Sequence record: LC788705.1
DNA length: 64,000 nt
DNA from: Escherichia coli phage NG_A1
Direction: 5' to 3' (one strand)
The position numbers and the translations under genes were made by a program. Shown piece after piece: positions 3,041-55,702 of the stretch. The notes under the pieces were generated by a model. The model had not been told where the DNA came from. It ran no database searches and saw nothing but the letters and a program-made list of their open reading frames with translations. How positions within the stretch are numbered: position 1 is the stretch's first letter; each line of letters opens with the position of its first letter.

Positions 3041-4058
3041 TTACTCGCTTTCGGTGTTAGTGGTAAAAGTAGAAATATCGATACCTTTTACCATTTCATC
3101 AATCATTTCAGCGATGTTAAAACTTTGCACCATTTCCAGCATTGCCGCTTCCATAGCCGCCCCTGCTACCGCTTTCGCCTTTTGGTTATTTGGGGCGTAT
3201 TGGTCAACCGCTACACTCAGCAGGTTAGCAATCACTACTCGACCAATAGGCGTATCGATATAACCTTTGATCATGAATGGTGCTTTTTTAGCCGCTACTT
3301 TCGTAATTTGAGTTAATGCAATTTTACCCGCCTCCAGTTTTGCAGCATTTACAACAGCGGATTTATTGGCGGCAACAATGTTAGCAATCTTGGTCATGGT
3401 GTTTTTTCCTTTGTTTTCAGTAGTTTGAGTGTTAACGCTTTGAGTGTTAGAATTTACAGCATGGTTTTCTACGCTGTCAATAATCTGATCTTCATCTTTC
3501 CAGAAAGAAAAACCAGCGCTTTCTATATCCCCATCATAAATATATGGGTATAGCTCCCGTGGTAACAAAAAATTACCGTCGTCATCAAAAGCCATTATAC
3601 CAGTATATTGAGATCCGTCGTTATCCGGCTTATGCCATCCAGCTGGTAAATACTTCCAGATAACATCTAAAAATCCCTCAATACTAGAAAGTCCGTTTAT
3701 CAGATCAAGCCCAATAAGCTCAAAACCATTTATATTAAATGATTGACGGCCTGAATTGCTATGATACGCAACAATATTATTACCCTGCGCAATAATAAAA
3801 TCGGTATCCGGCCCCGCTCCCCTGCCTGTAAAGATATGGCAATCCCGATTATATATATAAAACTAGCGTTGCCCCTTGCTTATATAATGGTAGAAAACTA
3901 TCCATATCATAGGCGTCATAATCATCAAAAAAGTTTTGATGAATAGTTTCAGCCTTGTTAATAAAATGTTTAATGCTGGTTGACTTGCTACCGTCCAGCA
4001 GGTTGCGCAATGCACCTTTTAAAACGGTGGCATTATCAGGTTTATACAGCCTCATTTG
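3041..4058 (-). CDS. Hypothetical pre-early protein, apparently interrupted by a +1 frameshift near 3849-3865 (fused product ~340 aa)
   Basis: Track ORFs 3849..4199 and 3041..3595 are joined by an 89-codon stop-free, start-less stretch (3596-3862) in the frame of the downstream ORF; strong GAGGGAGG RBS before ATG at 4058. Confidence 0.4.
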
Positions 4059-47056: not shown

Positions 47057-49616
47057 CGAGAATCCTTCTCACGTTATCCAAATCTTTACATACAGCAATA
47101 AACTTATCATCCTTGTATTTGCTATGATCTGGATGCTCTTTATCCATTGCAGCTAGTTTCTTATACTCGAATTCTGCATCAAGTAATACACCCTTGACAT
47201 AACGAGTATATTCATCATCATCAATACAAGCGATTGATGGGTGCTGTTTCTTCATCTTACCACAAGAGTAGTCGCGAGAACCTCCAGCTTCAGAATCTGA
47301 ATCAATACCAATCGGACAGCCAGGAATACTAATACCGCGGTCTTTCTGAATATTACGAATCAGGATTTCATTGTATTGGTCGATCAAATCCTCACGAACA
47401 ATAGCAACTACGGAGTCGTGAACCAGCATAACAATCTTCATCTCTTGTTCTAGGCCAAGAGAAATGATCTCATTATCTGCATCTACAGCACCTAAAAGGA
47501 GACTATCAGAAGAAGCAGACTGAATGATTGCGTTAAATCCAGAACGGATTTCTTCACCTTGAACACCACGGTCTTCGGAGTGGATATTATGCAGACGACG
47601 TTTACGACCAAAGTGACTATAGATAAATCCATGATTCTTGATCTGATCATGGCACTTATCAATCCAACGCTTAAGCTGCGGGAACTGACCGAAGTAAGTT
47701 TCTATATACTCTTTAGCATCTGCAACCGTACACTCTACAAACGGTTCGCCTGTCTTAGCAGCCTGTTCCAGAAGAGCTTCGTTAACAGAATGAGCTACTT
47801 TAGCTGGGCCAGAACCATACAGAATACCAAAGGTGATTGCTTTAGCTGCTTGACGCAGAGCTGGGAATAACTTTTTAACATCACGAGGCTCGCATTGGAG
47901 CTTAAATACCATGTGTGCGATGTTAGAGTGGAAGTCGGGGTATTTATCTGGTTCATTTCTCATGTTGATAAATACTTGTTGCATATTTCTATCACCAGAT
48001 AGAACAGCAGCATAATAAACTTCCGCAGTTGTTAAGTCCCATGCAATTACACGATACCCGGGAGGAGCTACTACACAACCCTTGATAATAGATTCATCAC
48101 GAGGTAACTGTTGCAGGTTCAGTTTACCAGAAGAACTCAGACGACCAGAAGTAGTCATATGTTCATGGAAACCAGTACGAATGCAACCATCTGCATCAAT
48201 ACTCAGAAGAATCTTCTCAACATAAGTAGAGATCAGCTTAGTCAGCTTACGAATCTCTAGTAGAGTCTTAGCAATTGGATGCTGCGTAGACAATTCGTTC
48301 AGAGCTTCTGCATCTGTAGAGTCTGCTCCAGTATCCGTCAATTTACCTGTTGGAGTTAAGCCAACATAATCAAATAGAAGAACACGGAGTTGTTTAACAG
48401 AGTTTGGGTTAAACGCTTCGTTCTGATCTTTCTCTAGCTGAACGACTTCTGGATAAGTATACAGTTTTTCACGAGCTTTATTCAGATTATGGGTTAACTG
48501 GTACTGAGCTTCTTTTAAACGATCAATAGAAATAGGTACACCACGATCCTCAACACGCTGGAGAAATACACAACCAGGCATTAGGACATCATAATACAGA
48601 CTACAAAGTTTTTCATTCTTCTCAATTTTTGGTAAGAAGAAGTTGTGCAAACGTATGGTAGCATCGGTATCTTTCGCAGCGTAAGGCCACATAATATCAA
48701 ACGGAATTAAATCATAGGTGAAATCTTCTTTCTTGATTTTATGTGCTTTGCAGTAATCCTCTTTGAACTTATCTAGTTCGAAGTCATAGTCACCCATATC
48801 GGTATACTTCATTGCTAGAGATTTCAAGCCATGAGTACCACGACGTTCATCTAGAACATAATGCTGCAACATAGTATCATGGAGCCTGCGTTCTTTATGC
48901 GCTTTATCAAAAGTAAGTCCCAGATGGTACTTATAAAAGTGCATATCAAACTTCAGGTTGTGAAAAACAATAGTGTGGTTTTCACTATCCAGAATTTTCT
49001 GGAGATAATATACTGCAACCTCTGTGAGACAATCAGAATCGATATATACACCCTGATACTCTTGGTGAGACATAGAAACACCAAGCAGATAACCATCTCG
49101 ACAGTATAGTGCTGAGGTTTCGGAGTCGAATGCGACAGGTCCGATAACCATATTATACACCATCTTGATATATTCTTCCGCCTCGTCAGGGTCAGTAATA
49201 GGACGGTAATCACCAGCTTTTGCAACCTTCTCACGACCATTGATAATATCGTGGATATTTTCTACTGTTGCATCGAAAACTGGTTTCATTTCAGGTTTAA
49301 AGTGTAACTGGGCTGGGCTGATACTCGCAATCCAGTTAGCATATCCATTATACTCTACACGTTTACCAGTATAGTCACCAATGCCTTTCTTACCTGCGAA
49401 ATACAGGAAAGGTTCAGCACCTACTAGTATAACAAAATCGTAATCATTCGGATCAAATGGGTTTTCTGGTGTTCCAATAGTAATGTGCTTTTTAAGCAAA
49501 CGACCAGATAACTTCTCATTACACATATGGAATACATCAACTTCCTCGCCGTATAGCTGGAAATGTTTATCGTAACGAGTGTTGTTTAGGGCTTTATCAA
49601 CTACTGCGATTTTCAA
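47049..49616 (-). CDS. DNA polymerase, family A with 3'-5' exonuclease domain (855 aa)
   Basis: Exo motif VAFDSETSAL; polymerase motif B KAITFGILYGSG; motif C LVHDSVV. Confidence 0.85.
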   Translation of the reverse strand: MKIAVVDKALNNTRYDKHFQLYGEEVDVFHMCNEKLSGRLLKKHITIGTPENPFDPNDYDFVILVGAEPFLYFAGKKGIGDYTGKRVEYNGYANWIASISPAQLHFKPEMKPVFDATVENIHDIINGREKVAKAGDYRPITDPDEAEEYIKMVYNMVIGPVAFDSETSALYCRDGYLLGVSMSHQEYQGVYIDSDCLTEVAVYYLQKILDSENHTIVFHNLKFDMHFYKYHLGLTFDKAHKERRLHDTMLQHYVLDERRGTHGLKSLAMKYTDMGDYDFELDKFKEDYCKAHKIKKEDFTYDLIPFDIMWPYAAKDTDATIRLHNFFLPKIEKNEKLCSLYYDVLMPGCVFLQRVEDRGVPISIDRLKEAQYQLTHNLNKAREKLYTYPEVVQLEKDQNEAFNPNSVKQLRVLLFDYVGLTPTGKLTDTGADSTDAEALNELSTQHPIAKTLLEIRKLTKLISTYVEKILLSIDADGCIRTGFHEHMTTSGRLSSSGKLNLQQLPRDESIIKGCVVAPPGYRVIAWDLTTAEVYYAAVLSGDRNMQQVFINMRNEPDKYPDFHSNIAHMVFKLQCEPRDVKKLFPALRQAAKAITFGILYGSGPAKVAHSVNEALLEQAAKTGEPFVECTVADAKEYIETYFGQFPQLKRWIDKCHDQIKNHGFIYSHFGRKRRLHNIHSEDRGVQGEEIRSGFNAIIQSASSDSLLLGAVDADNEIISLGLEQEMKIVMLVHDSVVAIVREDLIDQYNEILIRNIQKDRGISIPGCPIGIDSDSEAGGSRDYSCGKMKKQHPSIACIDDDEYTRYVKGVLLDAEFEYKKLAAMDKEHPDHSKYKDDKFIAVCKDLDNVRRILGA

Positions 49617-49678
49617 ATTTAATCTCCTCTTGGTAAGTAAGTATAACTTCAGTGTTTCTTCTCTAACTTACCAATATA

Positions 49679-50569
49679 TTATACCAAATCTTTAAGCGAT
49701 TCAGCAACTAAAATTTCAATACGTTTTGCTAACATATCAATTTCTTCTTTATTTAAGTCACCGGGGTCTTTACCTTCGGGTAGAAGAAAGTTAGCAACTA
49801 CAGGTGTTAAACGCGTTTTTGTACGAATTAACTTGGCCAATGCTTGTGCAGCCTTATTACCAGAAGCATCATTATCTAGTAAGATAACAACAACTTTTAC
49901 ACCAGCAATAATATAAGGGCTGAACTTATCTGCAATATTATCCGAGGTAAACTGATGTGTACCAAAGCAACAAGAAGCATAGTCTATACCATTATCCTCT
50001 AGGTTCAGCATATCAAAGATACCTTCAACTAGAATAAGAACTGGAGTATTATATCGTACAGGGAAAATCGGTGGTGAAACTTGTTTTGGTTTTACTAAGT
50101 ATTTAGGAGGGGCAGAACTGTTTATAGAACGACCCAAAAATAGGATATTGCGTCCAACAGCATCTGTGATTGGGAATACAATTCTGCCTTCCCAGTCTGC
50201 TTGGTGTTGGAAAGCAAAATATTTCTTCAAGGTCTTAGAACTTATACCTCGGAAATCACCTTCGAAAAGGTAAGCAGATTCAGGAATTGCAAGATTTGTA
50301 GATCCATTCCTAATCTCTGAAATCTTTTTACGTACCTGCGATAGTCTTGGAGACTGTCGGTACTGAGTCTCATTAAAATAATGGTAAATGCTCGGTATAC
50401 CTTTACCGAAGCCACAACTCAAGCAGTGCATAATACCTGTTTCAGGATCAATACGCAAACTTGGATGTTTATCGTCATGATCTGGATTTAAGCAACAGAT
50501 TAAAATATCTCCACCAGTATCTTTATACTCAATTCCCTTAAGATCAAGTAATTCTGTTATTCGACTCAT
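49679..50569 (-). CDS. DnaG-type DNA primase (296 aa)
   Basis: Zinc-binding CCLNPDHDDKHPS...HCLSCG; TOPRIM motifs EGIFD and LDNDASG. Confidence 0.75.
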   Translation of the reverse strand: MSRITELLDLKGIEYKDTGGDILICCLNPDHDDKHPSLRIDPETGIMHCLSCGFGKGIPSIYHYFNETQYRQSPRLSQVRKKISEIRNGSTNLAIPESAYLFEGDFRGISSKTLKKYFAFQHQADWEGRIVFPITDAVGRNILFLGRSINSSAPPKYLVKPKQVSPPIFPVRYNTPVLILVEGIFDMLNLEDNGIDYASCCFGTHQFTSDNIADKFSPYIIAGVKVVVILLDNDASGNKAAQALAKLIRTKTRLTPVVANFLLPEGKDPGDLNKEEIDMLAKRIEILVAESLKDLV

Positions 50570-51087
50570 GAATTTAACTCCTCCAGTGAAGGATACTTAG
50601 TTGGATCAAAAATCTCTTGAACAGCATTTTCTCCATGTAATTGTAGACGTAGTTCATTGGCTTTAGTGACTGCAAGCTTTAGATCTGCATAATTAAAGAG
50701 CCCACCGTGAACTTTTTCTCCCATAGAATTTACTACTCTTACATGCCATTTGTGATCCCGCTTAAACCAGAAAACTCCCAAGTACCCAGATTTACTTCTA
50801 GCTGTTTTATTTCTGCTATTTTCTTGCCGGGTGGATGGCCTAATATTAATCCATCTATTATCCCAAGTAATTCGATTAATATGGTCTACTTCCCCTGGCA
50901 TATATCCTTCCATATATAGGAAGGCTAGTTGGTGTGCAAAGTATAATTTTCTATCTACCTTTATCCGTATGTATCCACTATCTAGAGTACCCGCAATACT
51001 ACCAGCTTTCTGATTGCCTCTAGATACTTTTCTAGTAAACTCCCCAGTCTCTGGGGAGTAGTCAAATAGTTCTGTTATTCTACTCAT
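50566..51087 (-). CDS. HNH homing endonuclease with AP2-like DNA-binding domain (173 aa)
   Basis: HNH_3 motif VDHINRITWDNRWINIR; AP2-like KSGYLGVFWFKRDHKWHVRV; ATGA overlaps at both ends. Confidence 0.75.
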   Translation of the reverse strand: MSRITELFDYSPETGEFTRKVSRGNQKAGSIAGTLDSGYIRIKVDRKLYFAHQLAFLYMEGYMPGEVDHINRITWDNRWINIRPSTRQENSRNKTARSKSGYLGVFWFKRDHKWHVRVVNSMGEKVHGGLFNYADLKLAVTKANELRLQLHGENAVQEIFDPTKYPSLEELNS

Positions 51088-52556
51088 ATATCGCTGGCCT
51101 GTTCACCTGTTGAATTTTCAGCTTTGTCTTTCTTAGCACGTTTAGATTGAGCCGGCTTATCCTTCTCAATAGGGATAACGAACTCAGCTTCCATTTGAGA
51201 TATATCTTCCATTGCTAGATTGGTAGTGTTATCCATCCGCAGGGTTTCCCAGTTCATTTTAGGCATAAACTTCACGCTATCAGAAGAACGAGTCTTAACG
51301 AAGTCAAACATAATAGCACCTTGACCATTATCAGCTTTTGCAGCATTAAGATTAGCAGCCATGTCTGCGGAATCAAGAATCCCCTTTGACATACGTGTTC
51401 TACCATCTTGATCGATCTGGTAAGGAGCTACGCCAGCCACGTTATGTTTCTGGCAGATGGATTTGAAAGACGAGCTAACAACCATCTGTTCTTTCCAGTC
51501 ATACATATCAATGGTTTTAGAATCTGGAAGTCGGGTTTGGTTAATATAGTCCAGTAAAGCTACTGTAACTTTATCACCATATCTAGCAACTAATTTATTT
51601 AATTCTACGTCAACTGTTGTAATGGACAGTTCAGGGTCATAAACGATAATCATAGGAGTATGTAGTTCATACCCTTCTATTAGCTTACTCTCCATATCGT
51701 AGAAATCACTCATCTTAGCCATTGTATACTGTTTAACGAAGTTATCGAAAAGCTCTTCACCACCGTTGAACATTCTAGCTCTAGTTCTGGCTAATCTCAA
51801 TAGAGCTGCACCTTCTAGAGTATTATTACGCATTGCTAGTGCTGATACCCCGGCTAACATGGCTAGATTACGTCTAAATACTTCATGTTCTTTCATCTCA
51901 ATTGAGAAGTATGGAGCAATATCTCCATTCAAATATTGCTGAACCTGTATGTTTGAACAGATAATGGATTTACCAGTACCACGCCAACCACCAAGCAGTA
52001 ACGTTTCTGTGCGAGCTAAACCAATTTGAGCGTCGAACTCATTACAAATACCAAGAGCGATTAAGTTCAGTTTGGTATCTTCTTCTCTCTGGAAAATACG
52101 CATGTTATCTGCGTTGAATACTTTTCCAGTATTCGTTACTTTCTCTTCTAATTTTAAGTGAAGGGAGGCAACTCGGTTGAGAATTTCTCCCTGATCCAGC
52201 ATTGTTAAATCTTGAAGCACGTCTGTTTCTAGAAGCTTCAGGAATAAATCCTGTGTATATTCAGCCTCTAGGACTTCAAGTGCCTGTTCCATGCTCACTT
52301 CTGGAATTTGAGTGTTAGCTAAGACGACTAGAGCTTGAGAAAGGCGGGCGTTCCTATTAGCTTCAAGCATAAGTGCGTCAATGGACGGCATTGTGTTATA
52401 TTTTTTATAATAATTCTGGACGGCTTGGTAAATTGAGGAGAAAGCGTCATTAAAATGATCTTTATGCAGTTTTGAGAATGTTTCCAATGCTATTTGCTTC
52501 TGTTCGGAAGCTAGAAGCATCTTCAACACTACAGCTTGCACGTTAAACAAGGTCAT
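51084..52556 (-). CDS. DnaB-like replicative helicase (490 aa from the RBS-supported ATG)
   Basis: Walker A GGWRGTGKS; AAAGGAGA RBS before ATG at 52556; track ORF starts at an upstream alternative codon. Confidence 0.7.
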   Translation of the reverse strand: MTLFNVQAVVLKMLLASEQKQIALETFSKLHKDHFNDAFSSIYQAVQNYYKKYNTMPSIDALMLEANRNARLSQALVVLANTQIPEVSMEQALEVLEAEYTQDLFLKLLETDVLQDLTMLDQGEILNRVASLHLKLEEKVTNTGKVFNADNMRIFQREEDTKLNLIALGICNEFDAQIGLARTETLLLGGWRGTGKSIICSNIQVQQYLNGDIAPYFSIEMKEHEVFRRNLAMLAGVSALAMRNNTLEGAALLRLARTRARMFNGGEELFDNFVKQYTMAKMSDFYDMESKLIEGYELHTPMIIVYDPELSITTVDVELNKLVARYGDKVTVALLDYINQTRLPDSKTIDMYDWKEQMVVSSSFKSICQKHNVAGVAPYQIDQDGRTRMSKGILDSADMAANLNAAKADNGQGAIMFDFVKTRSSDSVKFMPKMNWETLRMDNTTNLAMEDISQMEAEFVIPIEKDKPAQSKRAKKDKAENSTGEQASDI

Positions 52557-52586
52557 TCTCCTTTGCACGCTTTCGTGCCTTCTAAA

Positions 52587-52620
52587 TGCAAAAAGGGGAA
52601 GGAGCATAGCCCCCTCCCCT
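52587..52620 (-). terminator. Intrinsic terminator on the minus strand
   Basis: 11-bp G/C-rich stem with two G-U pairs followed by UUUUU on the minus strand. Confidence 0.6.
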
Positions 52621-52638
52621 TAGGTTTAATTTACCAGA

Positions 52639-53406
52639 TTATTCAGCAGCCGCAGCTTTTGCATCCAGTTTAGCACGCTTAGCGGCACCATCATAGTCCT
52701 TAGCAACCAGACCACGACGAGACAGCATAGATTTAACACCGCGCTCAGACTTACCAGTTTTCTCAGCGATCTCAGCAACAGTCATGTTAACCAGATCCAG
52801 ACCTTCTAACAGATCTTCACGAGTTTTAGCACTTGAGGTTTCCTGTACCGGCATAGCAGCGATACGACCTTCACGAAGCAGGCTCAGAGCTTTACCGCGG
52901 ATCTGCTTAATATTACGACCGAAGTGAGCAGCGATAGCTTCAATAGTAGCACCAGCAACAACCTGATTAACAAAATCAGTTTCTTCATCTGGAGTGAAGG
53001 AACGAACAGCAGCAGCTTTTTCGGTTGGCTTAACAGAAGCGGTCATTTCCAGACTCAGAATCTTACCCTGTACCTGCTTAGCACCGAACTGACCACCAGC
53101 CACAGCAGCAGCGATTTCAGCATAGGTATACTGACCAGCATGAGCGTTCAGGAAATCAACCAGTTCAGCTTCCTGCTCAGGAGTCCACGGGGATTTCTGT
53201 ACTTCGTTAGCTTTCTGTACTTCAAAACCTTCTTTACGCAGTTTAGAGCCAACAGAGCGAGCGGTAACATCTTTGCCAGTTTCAGCGGCCAGTTCAGCAG
53301 CGATAGCAGCTACTTGTTCTTGAGAGATTACAGCAACACCCAGAGCAGTGGCTTTTGCTTTCAGAGACTCGGTTACACCTTCTACGTTCCAGTTCAGTTT
53401 AGACAT
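52639..53406 (-). CDS. DNA-binding protein with three tandem HTH-like repeats, T5 D5-like (255 aa)
   Basis: Three repeats of the type T(I/V)AEIA...G...VK..LS; E. coli-optimised codon usage. Confidence 0.5.
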   Translation of the reverse strand: MSKLNWNVEGVTESLKAKATALGVAVISQEQVAAIAAELAAETGKDVTARSVGSKLRKEGFEVQKANEVQKSPWTPEQEAELVDFLNAHAGQYTYAEIAAAVAGGQFGAKQVQGKILSLEMTASVKPTEKAAAVRSFTPDEETDFVNQVVAGATIEAIAAHFGRNIKQIRGKALSLLREGRIAAMPVQETSSAKTREDLLEGLDLVNMTVAEIAEKTGKSERGVKSMLSRRGLVAKDYDGAAKRAKLDAKAAAAE

Positions 53407-54172
53407 TATTATTTTTCTCCAATAGTTCTTTAATCGACAGGATTTCTATCCCATTCGTTTCGGCTTTCTTATAAGATGAGGAAGAACGTTTTGATTCATC
53501 CTCACAGATTAGGTATTTGACGTCTTTGGTAACGGATTTCTTAACCGTGTATCCTAGACCTTCTAAGTAGTTTGTTGCATCCGTTCGATTTGCAAAATCT
53601 TGCAAAGATCCGGTAATACATACCGCGATTCCATTTGGCTGGGCAACTAAATCATCAGTAACGACGGTTTTAGCTTTAGCACCAGTTGAGAATTTCCACG
53701 GTAATTCGATAACATCCTTGCCTTGTGGGGAATTTAGCCAGGCTTTATAATTTTCTCCAGCCTTGCCGTCAGCCTTCACATCATGGAAGCTAGTGCAATT
53801 TTGGGATAATTTCTTTGCTGCAACCTCTCCAATTAGAGGGATTCCTAAAGAACCGAGAACTGAACCAAAGTCAATGTCTCCGCGAACTTTAGTATTTAAT
53901 TCGCTAATTAACTTAGCGGCAACCTTGCTACCCACGGCTCTAACCAAATCTTCTTCGGTTAGGTAAAAGAGTTCTGAAATCTTCGTCAGCTCCAGCTTCT
54001 CAATAGTTTTCGGGCCAAAGCCCTTTAACTTCATTTTTGAACAGAAGTTCTCAATTAACTTACTTGATTGCGCTGGACAGTTGGACTTATTCCGACAGAA
54101 TAATTGTCCGTTGACAAGATCTAGCTTAGAACCACAAGAGGGACATTGTGTTGGAATTTCGATTTTCATCAA
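53399..54172 (-). CDS. NAD-dependent DNA ligase, C-terminal fragment (zinc finger, HhH, BRCT) (257 aa)
   Basis: Zinc finger CPSCGSKLDLVNGQLFCRNKSNCPAQ; HhH GFGPKTIEKL; BRCT-like C-terminus. Confidence 0.75.
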   Translation of the reverse strand: MMKIEIPTQCPSCGSKLDLVNGQLFCRNKSNCPAQSSKLIENFCSKMKLKGFGPKTIEKLELTKISELFYLTEEDLVRAVGSKVAAKLISELNTKVRGDIDFGSVLGSLGIPLIGEVAAKKLSQNCTSFHDVKADGKAGENYKAWLNSPQGKDVIELPWKFSTGAKAKTVVTDDLVAQPNGIAVCITGSLQDFANRTDATNYLEGLGYTVKKSVTKDVKYLICEDESKRSSSSYKKAETNGIEILSIKELLEKNNNV

Positions 54173-54371: not shown

Positions 54372-55343
54372 TTAATCGTATACTCGCTCTACTATGCACG
54401 GGATTACACCACCAGCACGAATCACTCGAATTTGGCAACCGATCTCTAGATCAAGAGAGTTAATATAATCAACGTTATTAAGAGTCGCTTTAACAATTGT
54501 AGCATCATCAATAATTACCGGTTCGAAATAACCAACTGGAGTTACTTTACCAGAAGCCCCTACCTGCCATTCAACTTTAGTAAGAGTTGTAATCTCACCT
54601 TCTTCATCCTCTTTAATAGCGAATGCTCCACGAGGGAATTTATTAGTCCAGCCTTCTCGGAAGAACTTGTTGTTGTCGTTAATACGAACAACTTTACCGT
54701 CCGTCGGAATCCATTTAAAGAAGGAACGCACATTAACAACTGTTAAGAAGTTCTCATTCTCTAGCCAAAGCATATCTTTTAAATACGCTTCTGTAATACC
54801 TACAGATTCAGCAGAACACTGGATACCATATGCAACGAAGATTAAACCACCTTCCCCGATACGTTGTACAAAATCATCACTATCTTTGAGGTTAATAGCA
54901 CCAGAGGCAAAGTTACGTTTATTTTCTACTTCTTTTGTAATTAGAACTTCACCAGTGATTTGAGTAGGTACTTTTTGGGAAATCTTTTTAGGGATGTTCA
55001 GCAATCTTACGTTGCTTGTGACATCATTCCCTAGAATACCATTACCACGAGTTAGTGCTTGAACAAATTCGCCATTAATATATAACAGAGAAATCGCACA
55101 ACCATCTAACTTATCAGTTTCTACTTGACCTAACGGGTTAAATGGGGGTTTATCTCCACGATTATAATAAACTTTCTGTAAAGAATACATACGATACAGA
55201 TGTGGAATATCACCCTTAGGTCCGATCTCTTCTTCTAACGGGAAGCGTTTTACCAGGCAATCATACTCCTCATCTGAGATTAAAGACATACCTTGATAAT
55301 ATGCTTCTTGGCAACGTTTAATAAAGTCTTTTACATTGGTCAT
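54372..55343 (-). CDS. NAD-dependent DNA ligase, N-terminal fragment (adenylation and OB domains) (323 aa)
   Basis: Adenylation motif I TDKLDGCAISLLY (KxDG). Confidence 0.75.
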   Translation of the reverse strand: MTNVKDFIKRCQEAYYQGMSLISDEEYDCLVKRFPLEEEIGPKGDIPHLYRMYSLQKVYYNRGDKPPFNPLGQVETDKLDGCAISLLYINGEFVQALTRGNGILGNDVTSNVRLLNIPKKISQKVPTQITGEVLITKEVENKRNFASGAINLKDSDDFVQRIGEGGLIFVAYGIQCSAESVGITEAYLKDMLWLENENFLTVVNVRSFFKWIPTDGKVVRINDNNKFFREGWTNKFPRGAFAIKEDEEGEITTLTKVEWQVGASGKVTPVGYFEPVIIDDATIVKATLNNVDYINSLDLEIGCQIRVIRAGGVIPCIVERVYD

Positions 55344-55616
55344 TTATTCTGCCTCATAGTATGTGGGTTGTCTAGTGGATCCGTGCCATGTATAATTTTT
55401 GCAAAGATGCAAATATGTAGTTTTTACTAGCCTATCTGACAACGGAGAGTATATTTCAGCTACTAATACTTCTTTTTCGTAATGAAGTGAAATCAGCTTA
55501 TACCCACTTCTAGTTTTAGTATACTTTTCTCCATTAATCTTCTCCTCCCACATAAGTATAAGAGGCTGTCCGATGTACGGGAAAGGTTTAAGTGTACTTA
55601 TACTTATCTTTTTCAC
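55344..55616 (-). CDS. Hypothetical early protein (90 aa)
   Basis: ORF downstream of the promoter at 55647-55675. Confidence 0.45.
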   Translation of the reverse strand: MKKISISTLKPFPYIGQPLILMWEEKINGEKYTKTRSGYKLISLHYEKEVLVAEIYSPLSDRLVKTTYLHLCKNYTWHGSTRQPTYYEAE

Positions 55617-55646
55617 TTTGCAACCCTCTCATTAATTTATATAAAT

Positions 55647-55675
55647 ATTATATAACAAAACTGAGTTGAAAGCAA
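55647..55675 (-). promoter_or_regulatory. Early sigma70-type promoter (TTGCTT-N17-TATAAT)
   Basis: -35 at 55670-55675, -10 at 55647-55652 on the minus strand. Confidence 0.6.
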
Positions 55676-55702
55676 GTACATTTATAAAGAAAAAGCCAAG
55701 AA

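Follow-up and report, generated by a model that had tools for sequence, protein, structure and literature searches.

How does the start of one gene come to stand at the head of another? The question is raised by a locus of Escherichia coli phage NG_A1 (LC788705.1; PMC12671086), of which we analyzed a stretch of 64,000 nucleotides, hereafter the window. A gene for an HNH endonuclease lies there between the genes for the replicative helicase and the primase, and it opens with nearly the same 21 nucleotides as the primase gene itself. We found that only the window's allele has this start, that the copy at the endonuclease start has the sequence found in phages lacking the endonuclease gene, and that the copy at the primase has the haplotype of phages that carry it. 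The probable explanation, in our judgment, is a recent homing event in which the homing endonuclease gene (HEG) passed from a HEG-positive donor into a HEG-less genome resembling phage ECOP18, with the left-hand switch between the two falling in a GAACT microhomology. Left and right follow the reading direction of the genes, and HEG-positive and HEG-less denote genomes with and without the HNH gene at the helicase/primase junction.

Three tightly packed open reading frames (ORFs), all on the minus strand, make up the locus:

51084-52607, minus strand: D6 / DnaB-like replicative helicase gene (ORF; Pfam DnaB_C; D6/replicative helicase annotation in T5 and relatives)
50566-51087, minus strand: HNH homing endonuclease gene, an allele of T5 hegJ (T5.120, 'P-TflX'), 173 aa, with a chimeric N-terminus (Pfam HNH_3, E 5.6e-12; position of T5 hegJ)
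49679-50569, minus strand: DnaG-type primase gene (T5 pri, T5.121) (ORF; Pfam Toprim, Zn_ribbon_DnaG and DNAG_N; annotation in T5 and relatives)

The HNH gene, 522 nt long, shares an ATGA with each neighbor, at 51084-51087 with the helicase stop (TGA) and at 50566-50569, where its own stop overlaps the primase start; ORFs, Pfam matches and coordinates all agree with the initial annotation on this layout. Several hundred T5-like phages (Tequintavirus, Epseptimavirus) match the region at 89-99% identity. In T5 itself the position between D6 helicase and pri is taken, with equal overlaps, by hegJ ('putative H-N-H endonuclease P-TflX'), and in the Gostya9 record the gene found here is called 'family HNH nicking homing endonuclease F-TflVIII'. 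The window's HNH protein is identical to BEU75675.1 of NG_A1, whose deposited record already labels the ORF HNH endonuclease, and apart from its first residues it is 97-98% identical to the 176-aa allele of phages Tennessee, T5_ev219 and 8sent1748. Because it has HNH and AP2 profile matches and invariant catalytic positions and no intron-like RNA, we identify the gene as a free-standing HNH/AP2 HEG of the T5 hegJ type. This element has been known and annotated since T5 was sequenced; our literature searches (hegJ, P-TflX, the F-Tfl names, homing endonucleases of T5-like phages) found no study of hegJ or its activity. No Rfam family matched 49000-53000 at E <= 1, which led us to reject a group I intron or another structured RNA; an intron- or intein-encoded HEG was likewise rejected, the gene being a separate ORF between two complete ones.

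The HNH gene starts ATGAGTAGAATAACAGAACTA and the primase gene ATGAGTCGAATAACAGAATTA, sequences identical at 19 of 21 nt, and both proteins begin MSRITEL. A repeat search extended the similarity to a 26-nt direct repeat (23/26 identical) with copies at 50544-50569 and 51062-51087, spaced 518 nt apart:

51067-51087, minus strand: left repeat copy, nt 1-21 of the HNH ORF, a primase start of recipient type that was retained (21/21 to the ECOP18 primase start)
50544-50569, minus strand: right repeat copy, the working primase start in the donor haplotype ATGAGTCGAATAACAGAATTACTTGA (alignment, repeat search)

The ATG-ORF starts of the window form 1830 pairs, of which this one alone exceeded 16/21 identity, and the analytic probability of a 19/21 match is ~4e-8 per pair, or 8e-5 over all pairs, so that the near identity noted in the initial annotation cannot be put down to chance. 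The left copy matches the primase start of ECOP18, and that of most HEG-less genomes, at 21/21 positions, and BLAST alignments between the window and ECOP18 overlap by 26 nt at the HNH start.

We then compared the junction across T5-like phages. An HNH gene is present at the helicase/primase junction in 71 of 437 INPHARED T5-like records (~16%), and most of the others span 2583 nt where the window spans 3101, exactly 518 nt less. The haplotypes read numbered 40 distinct ones, 19 HEG-positive besides the window's and 21 HEG-less. The HEG-positive sample had been enlarged from GenBank records; a search for loci encoding the HNH protein and a search of IMG/VR with the HEG-positive junction pattern gave 8-9 loci, none of them additional. 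In every HEG-less haplotype (21/21) the helicase stop overlaps the primase start directly as ATGA and the primase begins MSRITELLDLKGIEY (MSRITELLDL), with neither gene interrupted. The direct overlap persists even in relatives whose primase is only 38-43% identical. The initial annotation had proposed a homing insertion exactly at this junction and had predicted a direct overlap in relatives lacking the gene; both proposals hold, and no HEG-less haplotype showed a different junction or primase N-terminus. The hegJ-type element is thus a selfish one, present or absent at a single, zero-length site between helicase and primase in otherwise collinear genomes.

The start of the window's HNH gene is a derived one. 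The other HEG-positive haplotypes, 19 out of 19, and homologues down to ~35% identity start MITQERLKELFDY; in the former the gene opens with ATGATAACACAGGAA, encoding MITQ(E/K)RLKELFDYSP. These haplotypes represent at least three HNH alleles whose central parts are only 48-70% identical, their HNH copies are 9-12 nt longer than the window's, and they have nothing but the ATGA in common with the primase start. The motif M-[IL]-T-Q-x-x-L-K-E-L-F-x-Y-x-P-E-T-G is conserved across homologues from unrelated metagenomic sources, again down to ~35% identity, which makes MITQERLK the family's own N-terminus and MSRIT secondary. The MSRITELFDY start occurs in the window's allele only. Within the 90% protein cluster, 26 of 27 members have 176 aa and the lone 173-aa member is BEU75675.1. 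Degenerate 29-32-mers of the chimeric junction had no match in IMG/VR, in GTDB genomes or in JGI metagenomes, and a 141-nt junction query against INPHARED, whose matches did not include the NG_A1 genome, returned only the 9-nt-longer form.

The HNH alleles at this site are themselves mosaic. Over 50566-51087, against the loci numbered L001, L002, L004 and L026 in our set, identity is 80-100% in the 60 nt at either end and 48-70% in the central 300 nt, a pattern that suggests allele replacement by recombination within the conserved ends.

Both parents of the window's junction could be recognized. From ~54250 to 48300 the window and the HEG-less phage ECOP18 (MT080103) hardly differ, with no mismatch across 52750-51147 and none from 50464 to ~48300. 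Within this block the differences consist of the HNH gene, 15 single-nucleotide polymorphisms (SNPs) at 50540-50489, one SNP at 50465, and two SNPs at 51146 and 51122. ECOP18 was rejected as a genome-wide parent; the window as a whole is mosaic relative to it (85-99.5% identity), and for this reason we restrict the term ECOP18-like to the block. All 15 SNPs at 50540-50489 match the HEG-positive phages 8sent1748 and T5_ev219. The primase starts fall into two types, ECOP18 and the left copy in the HNH gene reading AGA..GAACTA and the window's own primase reading CGA..GAATTA, the donor type. In a three-way alignment of the window, ECOP18 and 8sent1748/T5_ev219, the HNH gene from nt 22 onward corresponds to the donor HNH gene from donor nt 31 (GAACTG followed by TTTGACTAC). 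The breakpoints could therefore be placed as follows:

51067-51072, minus strand: GAACT(A) microhomology, switch from the recipient primase 5' end to donor HNH (donor nt 25-30, GAACTG) (three-way alignment)
50489-51066, minus strand: donor-derived co-conversion tract, comprising the rest of the HNH gene and the first ~80 nt of the primase (SNPs versus ECOP18)
51122-51146, minus strand: helicase 3'-end SNPs, 51146 T and 51122 G, a possible short left co-conversion patch (sole ECOP18 differences in the last ~1.6 kb of the helicase)

Since the left copy matches ECOP18 at all 21 positions and gives way to donor HNH sequence after GAACT, it is the recipient's original primase start; the right copy, judged by its haplotype, is the one that arrived with the donor. 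In the resulting chimera MSRIT replaces MITQERLK, and three codons (9 nt) were lost in frame. The right end of the donor tract lies between 50489 (or 50465) and 50351, that is, 80-218 nt inside the primase. Markers flanking the HEG were thus converted along with it, and the haplotype they form is the one linked to the HEG. The initial annotation had stated that the start of the target gene was copied. The left HNH copy is indeed a primase start, that of the recipient; it was not simply copied, however, and the working primase start is the one that came with the donor.

The same alignments pointed to a candidate target. Primase codons 17-23 hold a cluster of synonymous differences:

50501-50521, minus strand: predicted homing target / immunity determinant, primase codons 17-23 (HEG-less GACACAGGTGGGGACATCCTC versus the window's synonymous HEG-positive version GATACTGGTGGAGATATTTTA)

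At 50519, 50504 and 50501 (primase nt 51, 66 and 69) all 19 HEG-positive haplotypes read T, T and A/T, and 20 of the 21 HEG-less ones read C, C and C. By analogy with free-standing T4 HEGs such as SegB (PMC2330249), we predict that GACACAGGTGGGGACATCCTC, in the zinc-finger region of the primase, is part of the recognition or immunity site. The lone HEG-less exception, Escherichia phage HildyBeyeler (MZ501074), has the HEG-positive type of primase 5' haplotype from about nt 30; its sequence looks like a cleavage-resistant HEG-less allele, left either by loss of the HEG or by co-conversion that stopped short of it. The HildyBeyeler primase start is at position 2259 of its locus (L111), corresponding to window 50450-50569.

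From these observations the following course of events can be proposed. In a mixed infection the endonuclease would cut or nick the 5' region of a HEG-less primase gene, the predicted site being at about primase nt 49-69, and the break would be repaired from a HEG-positive genome, so that the HEG is copied together with nearby donor markers. The recipient would have been ECOP18-like and HEG-less, the donor a HEG-positive phage of the Tennessee/T5_ev219/8sent1748 type. On the right, some 80-218 nt of the primase would have taken on, by co-conversion, the synonymous haplotype of the donor, which presumably resists cleavage. On the left, the recipient's helicase-primase junction would have been kept through primase nt 21 and joined to donor HNH nt 31 by way of GAACT, an illegitimate, microhomology-based junction that would yield the in-frame chimera and leave a 21-26-nt direct repeat flanking the element.

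Several points weigh against this account. The two SNPs near the helicase end, at 51146 and 51122, resemble the donor. They are unlikely to be background, a pair within 60 nt having P ~7e-4 at ~2 mismatches per 3100 nt; both states of both SNPs, however, occur in HEG-positive and HEG-less genomes alike. If they stem from the same event, the tract is discontinuous, with an island of recipient type at the HNH start, and a discontinuous tract would call for mismatch (heteroduplex) repair or template switching in place of one simple crossover. The exact donor is absent from the databases, the closest alleles differing at 5-6 nt. The association of primase nt 51, 66 and 69 with HEG state (Fisher 3e-10 over 40 distinct haplotypes) is uncorrected for phylogeny, and the activity and target of hegJ, like the timing and molecular route of the junction, are inferred. 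Finally, the primase gene of the HEG-positive phages NR01, SP01, JLBYU43 and PH204 starts just as in HEG-less genomes, with ATGAGTAGAATAACAGAACTA, and the 21-nt patch could thus predate the homing event, having arisen by ectopic conversion in the donor lineage.

This last point leads to an alternative in which the chimera is older. Ectopic conversion or unequal recombination within a HEG-positive genome, between the primase 5' end and the HNH 5' end 518-530 nt upstream, would have made the chimeric start, and normal homing with short two-sided co-conversion would have carried it into the present backbone. The T at 51146 and the G at 51122 would fit such a two-sided tract, the HEG-positive genomes just named supply a possible source, and the two 5' ends share ATAACA and GA(A/G)(C/T)T(A/G)(C/T)TTGA. 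This explanation costs one event more than the single-event model, however; its chimeric start turned up in no other genome, contig or protein searched, and the haplotype of the patch is of the recipient type, unlike that of the primase start to which the HEG is linked today. We consider it unlikely.

The initial annotation had taken the repeat for the footprint of the original insertion. Here the HEG would have entered 18-21 nt inside the primase and duplicated the target start, the window would have the ancestral form, and MITQERLK would have come later. It is true that the repeat flanks the element exactly, and that HEG-less genomes show the predicted junction and an identical primase N-terminus. 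But none of the other 19 HEG-positive haplotypes, which cover at least three divergent alleles, has the duplication; they carry MITQ(E/K)RLKELFDY and the ATGA alone is common to their ends. The N-terminal motif recurs in homologues at 35-45% identity outside T5-like phages. The window's allele is a singleton nested, at 97-98% identity, in the Tennessee/T5_ev219 allele, and a change from MSRIT to MITQERLK would need a 6-nt deletion and a 15-nt insertion that happened to recreate the family-wide motif. As the scar of the insertion that created the HEG, then, the repeat is very improbable.

We give equally little credence to an assembly or consensus artefact arising from a lysate in which HEG-positive and HEG-less T5-like phages were mixed. 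Such lysates can be mixed, and a left flank of HEG-less type is joined here to a right flank of HEG-positive type; but at 5-6 nt the homology at the junction is much shorter than the k-mers that assemblers use, the reading frame is kept exactly, with ORFs intact and both ATGA overlaps present, and the identical protein is found in a deposited complete phage genome. Virtually negligible is chance similarity, or convergence of the two gene starts under selection for good translation initiation with no recombination involved, for although the T5 HNH (..RLKELFDY) and primase (..RITELLDL) N-termini are slightly alike, neither the low per-pair probability of the 19/21 identity, nor the 21/21 match of the left copy to the HEG-less primase start, synonymous positions included, nor the nature of the change relative to other alleles, a compound indel and not point mutations, agrees with it. 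A transposon-type target-site duplication was also rejected: 19 other HEG-positive haplotypes are without it, and there is neither a transposase ORF nor a pair of terminal inverted repeats.

Returning to the single homing event into an ECOP18-like genome, one may ask what the junction records. A tentative and rather doubtful idea is that it is the natural footprint of the recipient strand's 3' end during repair, the enzyme nicking or cutting the HEG-less primase ~20-30 nt from the ATG and recognizing sequence to nt ~70. Were this true, homing in T5-like phages could proceed by microhomology-primed synthesis, and a HEG would have a route to capture the N-terminal codons and native initiation region of the essential gene it parasitizes. 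HildyBeyeler, with the resistant haplotype from primase nt 19-29, would then be a second, independent recombinant ending in the same short interval.

We also examined the HNH protein and the signals around it:

50812-50943, minus strand: HNH (His-Me finger) catalytic core, residues 49-92 (Pfam HNH_3; 31-sequence alignment; I-HmuI profile match)
50608-50787, minus strand: AP2/ERF-like DNA-binding domain, residues ~101-160 (profile match to the WRI1 AP2 domain, 7WQ5, E 1e-6; AlphaFold; Foldseek)
50578-50584, minus strand: GGAGGAG Shine-Dalgarno sequence for the primase, lying 8 nt before the primase ATG and formed by the LEE codons of ...LEELNS* at the HNH 3' end (read from sequence)

HNH_3 scored 45.5 bits on the window's protein against a cut-off of 24.8, residues H52, D68, H69, N77, N81, N90 and N93 are invariant in the alignment of 31 homologues, and the family profile matched I-HmuI (1U3E) over the core (residues ~38-100) with E 1e-6. 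The AlphaFold model had a pLDDT of 94. Foldseek against the PDB gave no significant match to the whole protein, only the AP2 domain aligning well; the C-terminal domain aligned with AtERF1 (1GCC) at TM(target) 0.75, rmsd 2.1 and prob 1.00. PF00847 is precomputed on several HNH homologues. On the window's protein itself the Pfam AP2 model fell short of E 0.01, the AP2 call being based on the family profile and the predicted fold. In the chimera the frame, the catalytic residues and R-[LI]-x-E-L-F-D-Y are all retained, with an N-terminal helix still predicted in the model; the enzyme is probably still functional.

The initial annotation had also tied the duplication to translational coupling, which proved unnecessary: the 19 other HEG-positive haplotypes all keep both ATGA overlaps without it. 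Inspection of HEG-less sequences found no Shine-Dalgarno sequence before the primase ATG, and the primase of these genomes depends on ATGA coupling to the helicase. In HEG-positive genomes the HNH gene occupies that helicase-coupled position, and the LEELNS tail, conserved in all site-resident HNH alleles, supplies GGAGGAG, so that coupling is kept in every one of them. The window's HNH gene additionally inherits the primase's native initiation region through +21.

Other differences were seen around the locus. Beyond the nearly identical block, the window and ECOP18 differ at many positions in 55000-55700 (108 mismatches in ~750 nt, around the 5' region of ligase A), and nine mismatches cluster in the polymerase gene at 48000-48250; phage SUT_E520 has 101 mismatches in the 48000 bin. 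The clusters that bound or interrupt the block are probably other recombination tracts. Two separate ORFs, at 53399-54172 and 54372-55343 and 199 nt apart, encode subunits B and A of the NAD-dependent DNA ligase, in agreement with the annotation of T5 relatives. A second, paralogous HNH HEG of 582 nt stands at the D5/helicase junction of VSe12 (L003, 622-1203), Tennessee (L004, 622-1203) and HildyBeyeler (L111, 222-803), where the helicase with which it overlaps has been annotated as 19 codons shorter; the window is without this second HEG (empty site 52608-52638). Between primase and DNA polymerase, FGS029 (L002, 3560-3889) and the loci L108 and L112 (both 3161-3490) have an inserted segment of ~387 nt that contains a hypothetical ORF of 330 nt, and in the window this spacer is 62 nt only (49617-49678).

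What is new here, as read from the alignments, is a chimeric hegJ allele found in a single genome, with the ends of its conversion tract placed at nucleotide resolution and the first codons of the primase captured in frame. Both ends could be placed because the HEG-less backbone and the HEG-positive donor are each recognizable at the level of single nucleotides. The chimeric junction and the HEG-linked synonymous sites in the zinc-finger region of the primase provide a concrete predicted target for an uncharacterized T5 endonuclease. The duplication is an ordinary scar of gene homing, and homing can create small gene-start duplications that resemble target-site duplications. These results should be useful for the annotation and phylogeny of T5-like phages and leave the current understanding of homing unchanged.

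The closest known system is hegJ of T5, with which the window's gene shares the D6 helicase/primase locus, the ATGA at both ends, the HNH_3 and AP2-like architecture, the conserved first ~100 nt from codon 9, and the LEELNS tail with the primase Shine-Dalgarno sequence. It differs in its primase-derived MSRIT in place of MITQERLK, in its length (173 aa versus 176-177), and in a central region belonging to another allele, 48-70% identical to T5 at the nucleotide level and nearest to Tennessee/T5_ev219/8sent1748.

Free-standing HEGs of T4-like phages (Seg and Mob, e.g. SegB, PMC2330249; SegG, SegF, MobE) likewise lie between genes beside an essential gene, are present or absent among relatives, and co-convert their flanks. 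The two groups are also alike in that the target, where we infer it for hegJ, is inside the neighboring conserved gene and not at the insertion point, with resistance by way of synonymous substitutions. The Seg enzymes, however, belong to the GIY-YIG nuclease family, and homing by hegJ is a prediction from sequence. To our knowledge, in-frame fusion of a HEG with the first codons of its target gene is not a described outcome for T4-like HEGs.

Among HNH enzymes, the nicking endonuclease I-HmuI of SPO1 (1U3E) resembles the window's protein in its core by profile and in the conserved catalytic His and Asn positions, but it is intron-encoded, whereas the window's gene stands between two ORFs without an intron and has an AP2-like C-terminal module. 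That module, with its matches to 7WQ5 and 1GCC, places the protein alongside the HNH-AP2 endonucleases, bacterial and phage relatives of the plant AP2/ERF domains. As with the target-site duplications of transposons, a short direct repeat of target sequence flanks the element; unlike them, the window's repeat occurs in one genome only, and its two copies differ as recipient haplotype from donor haplotype.

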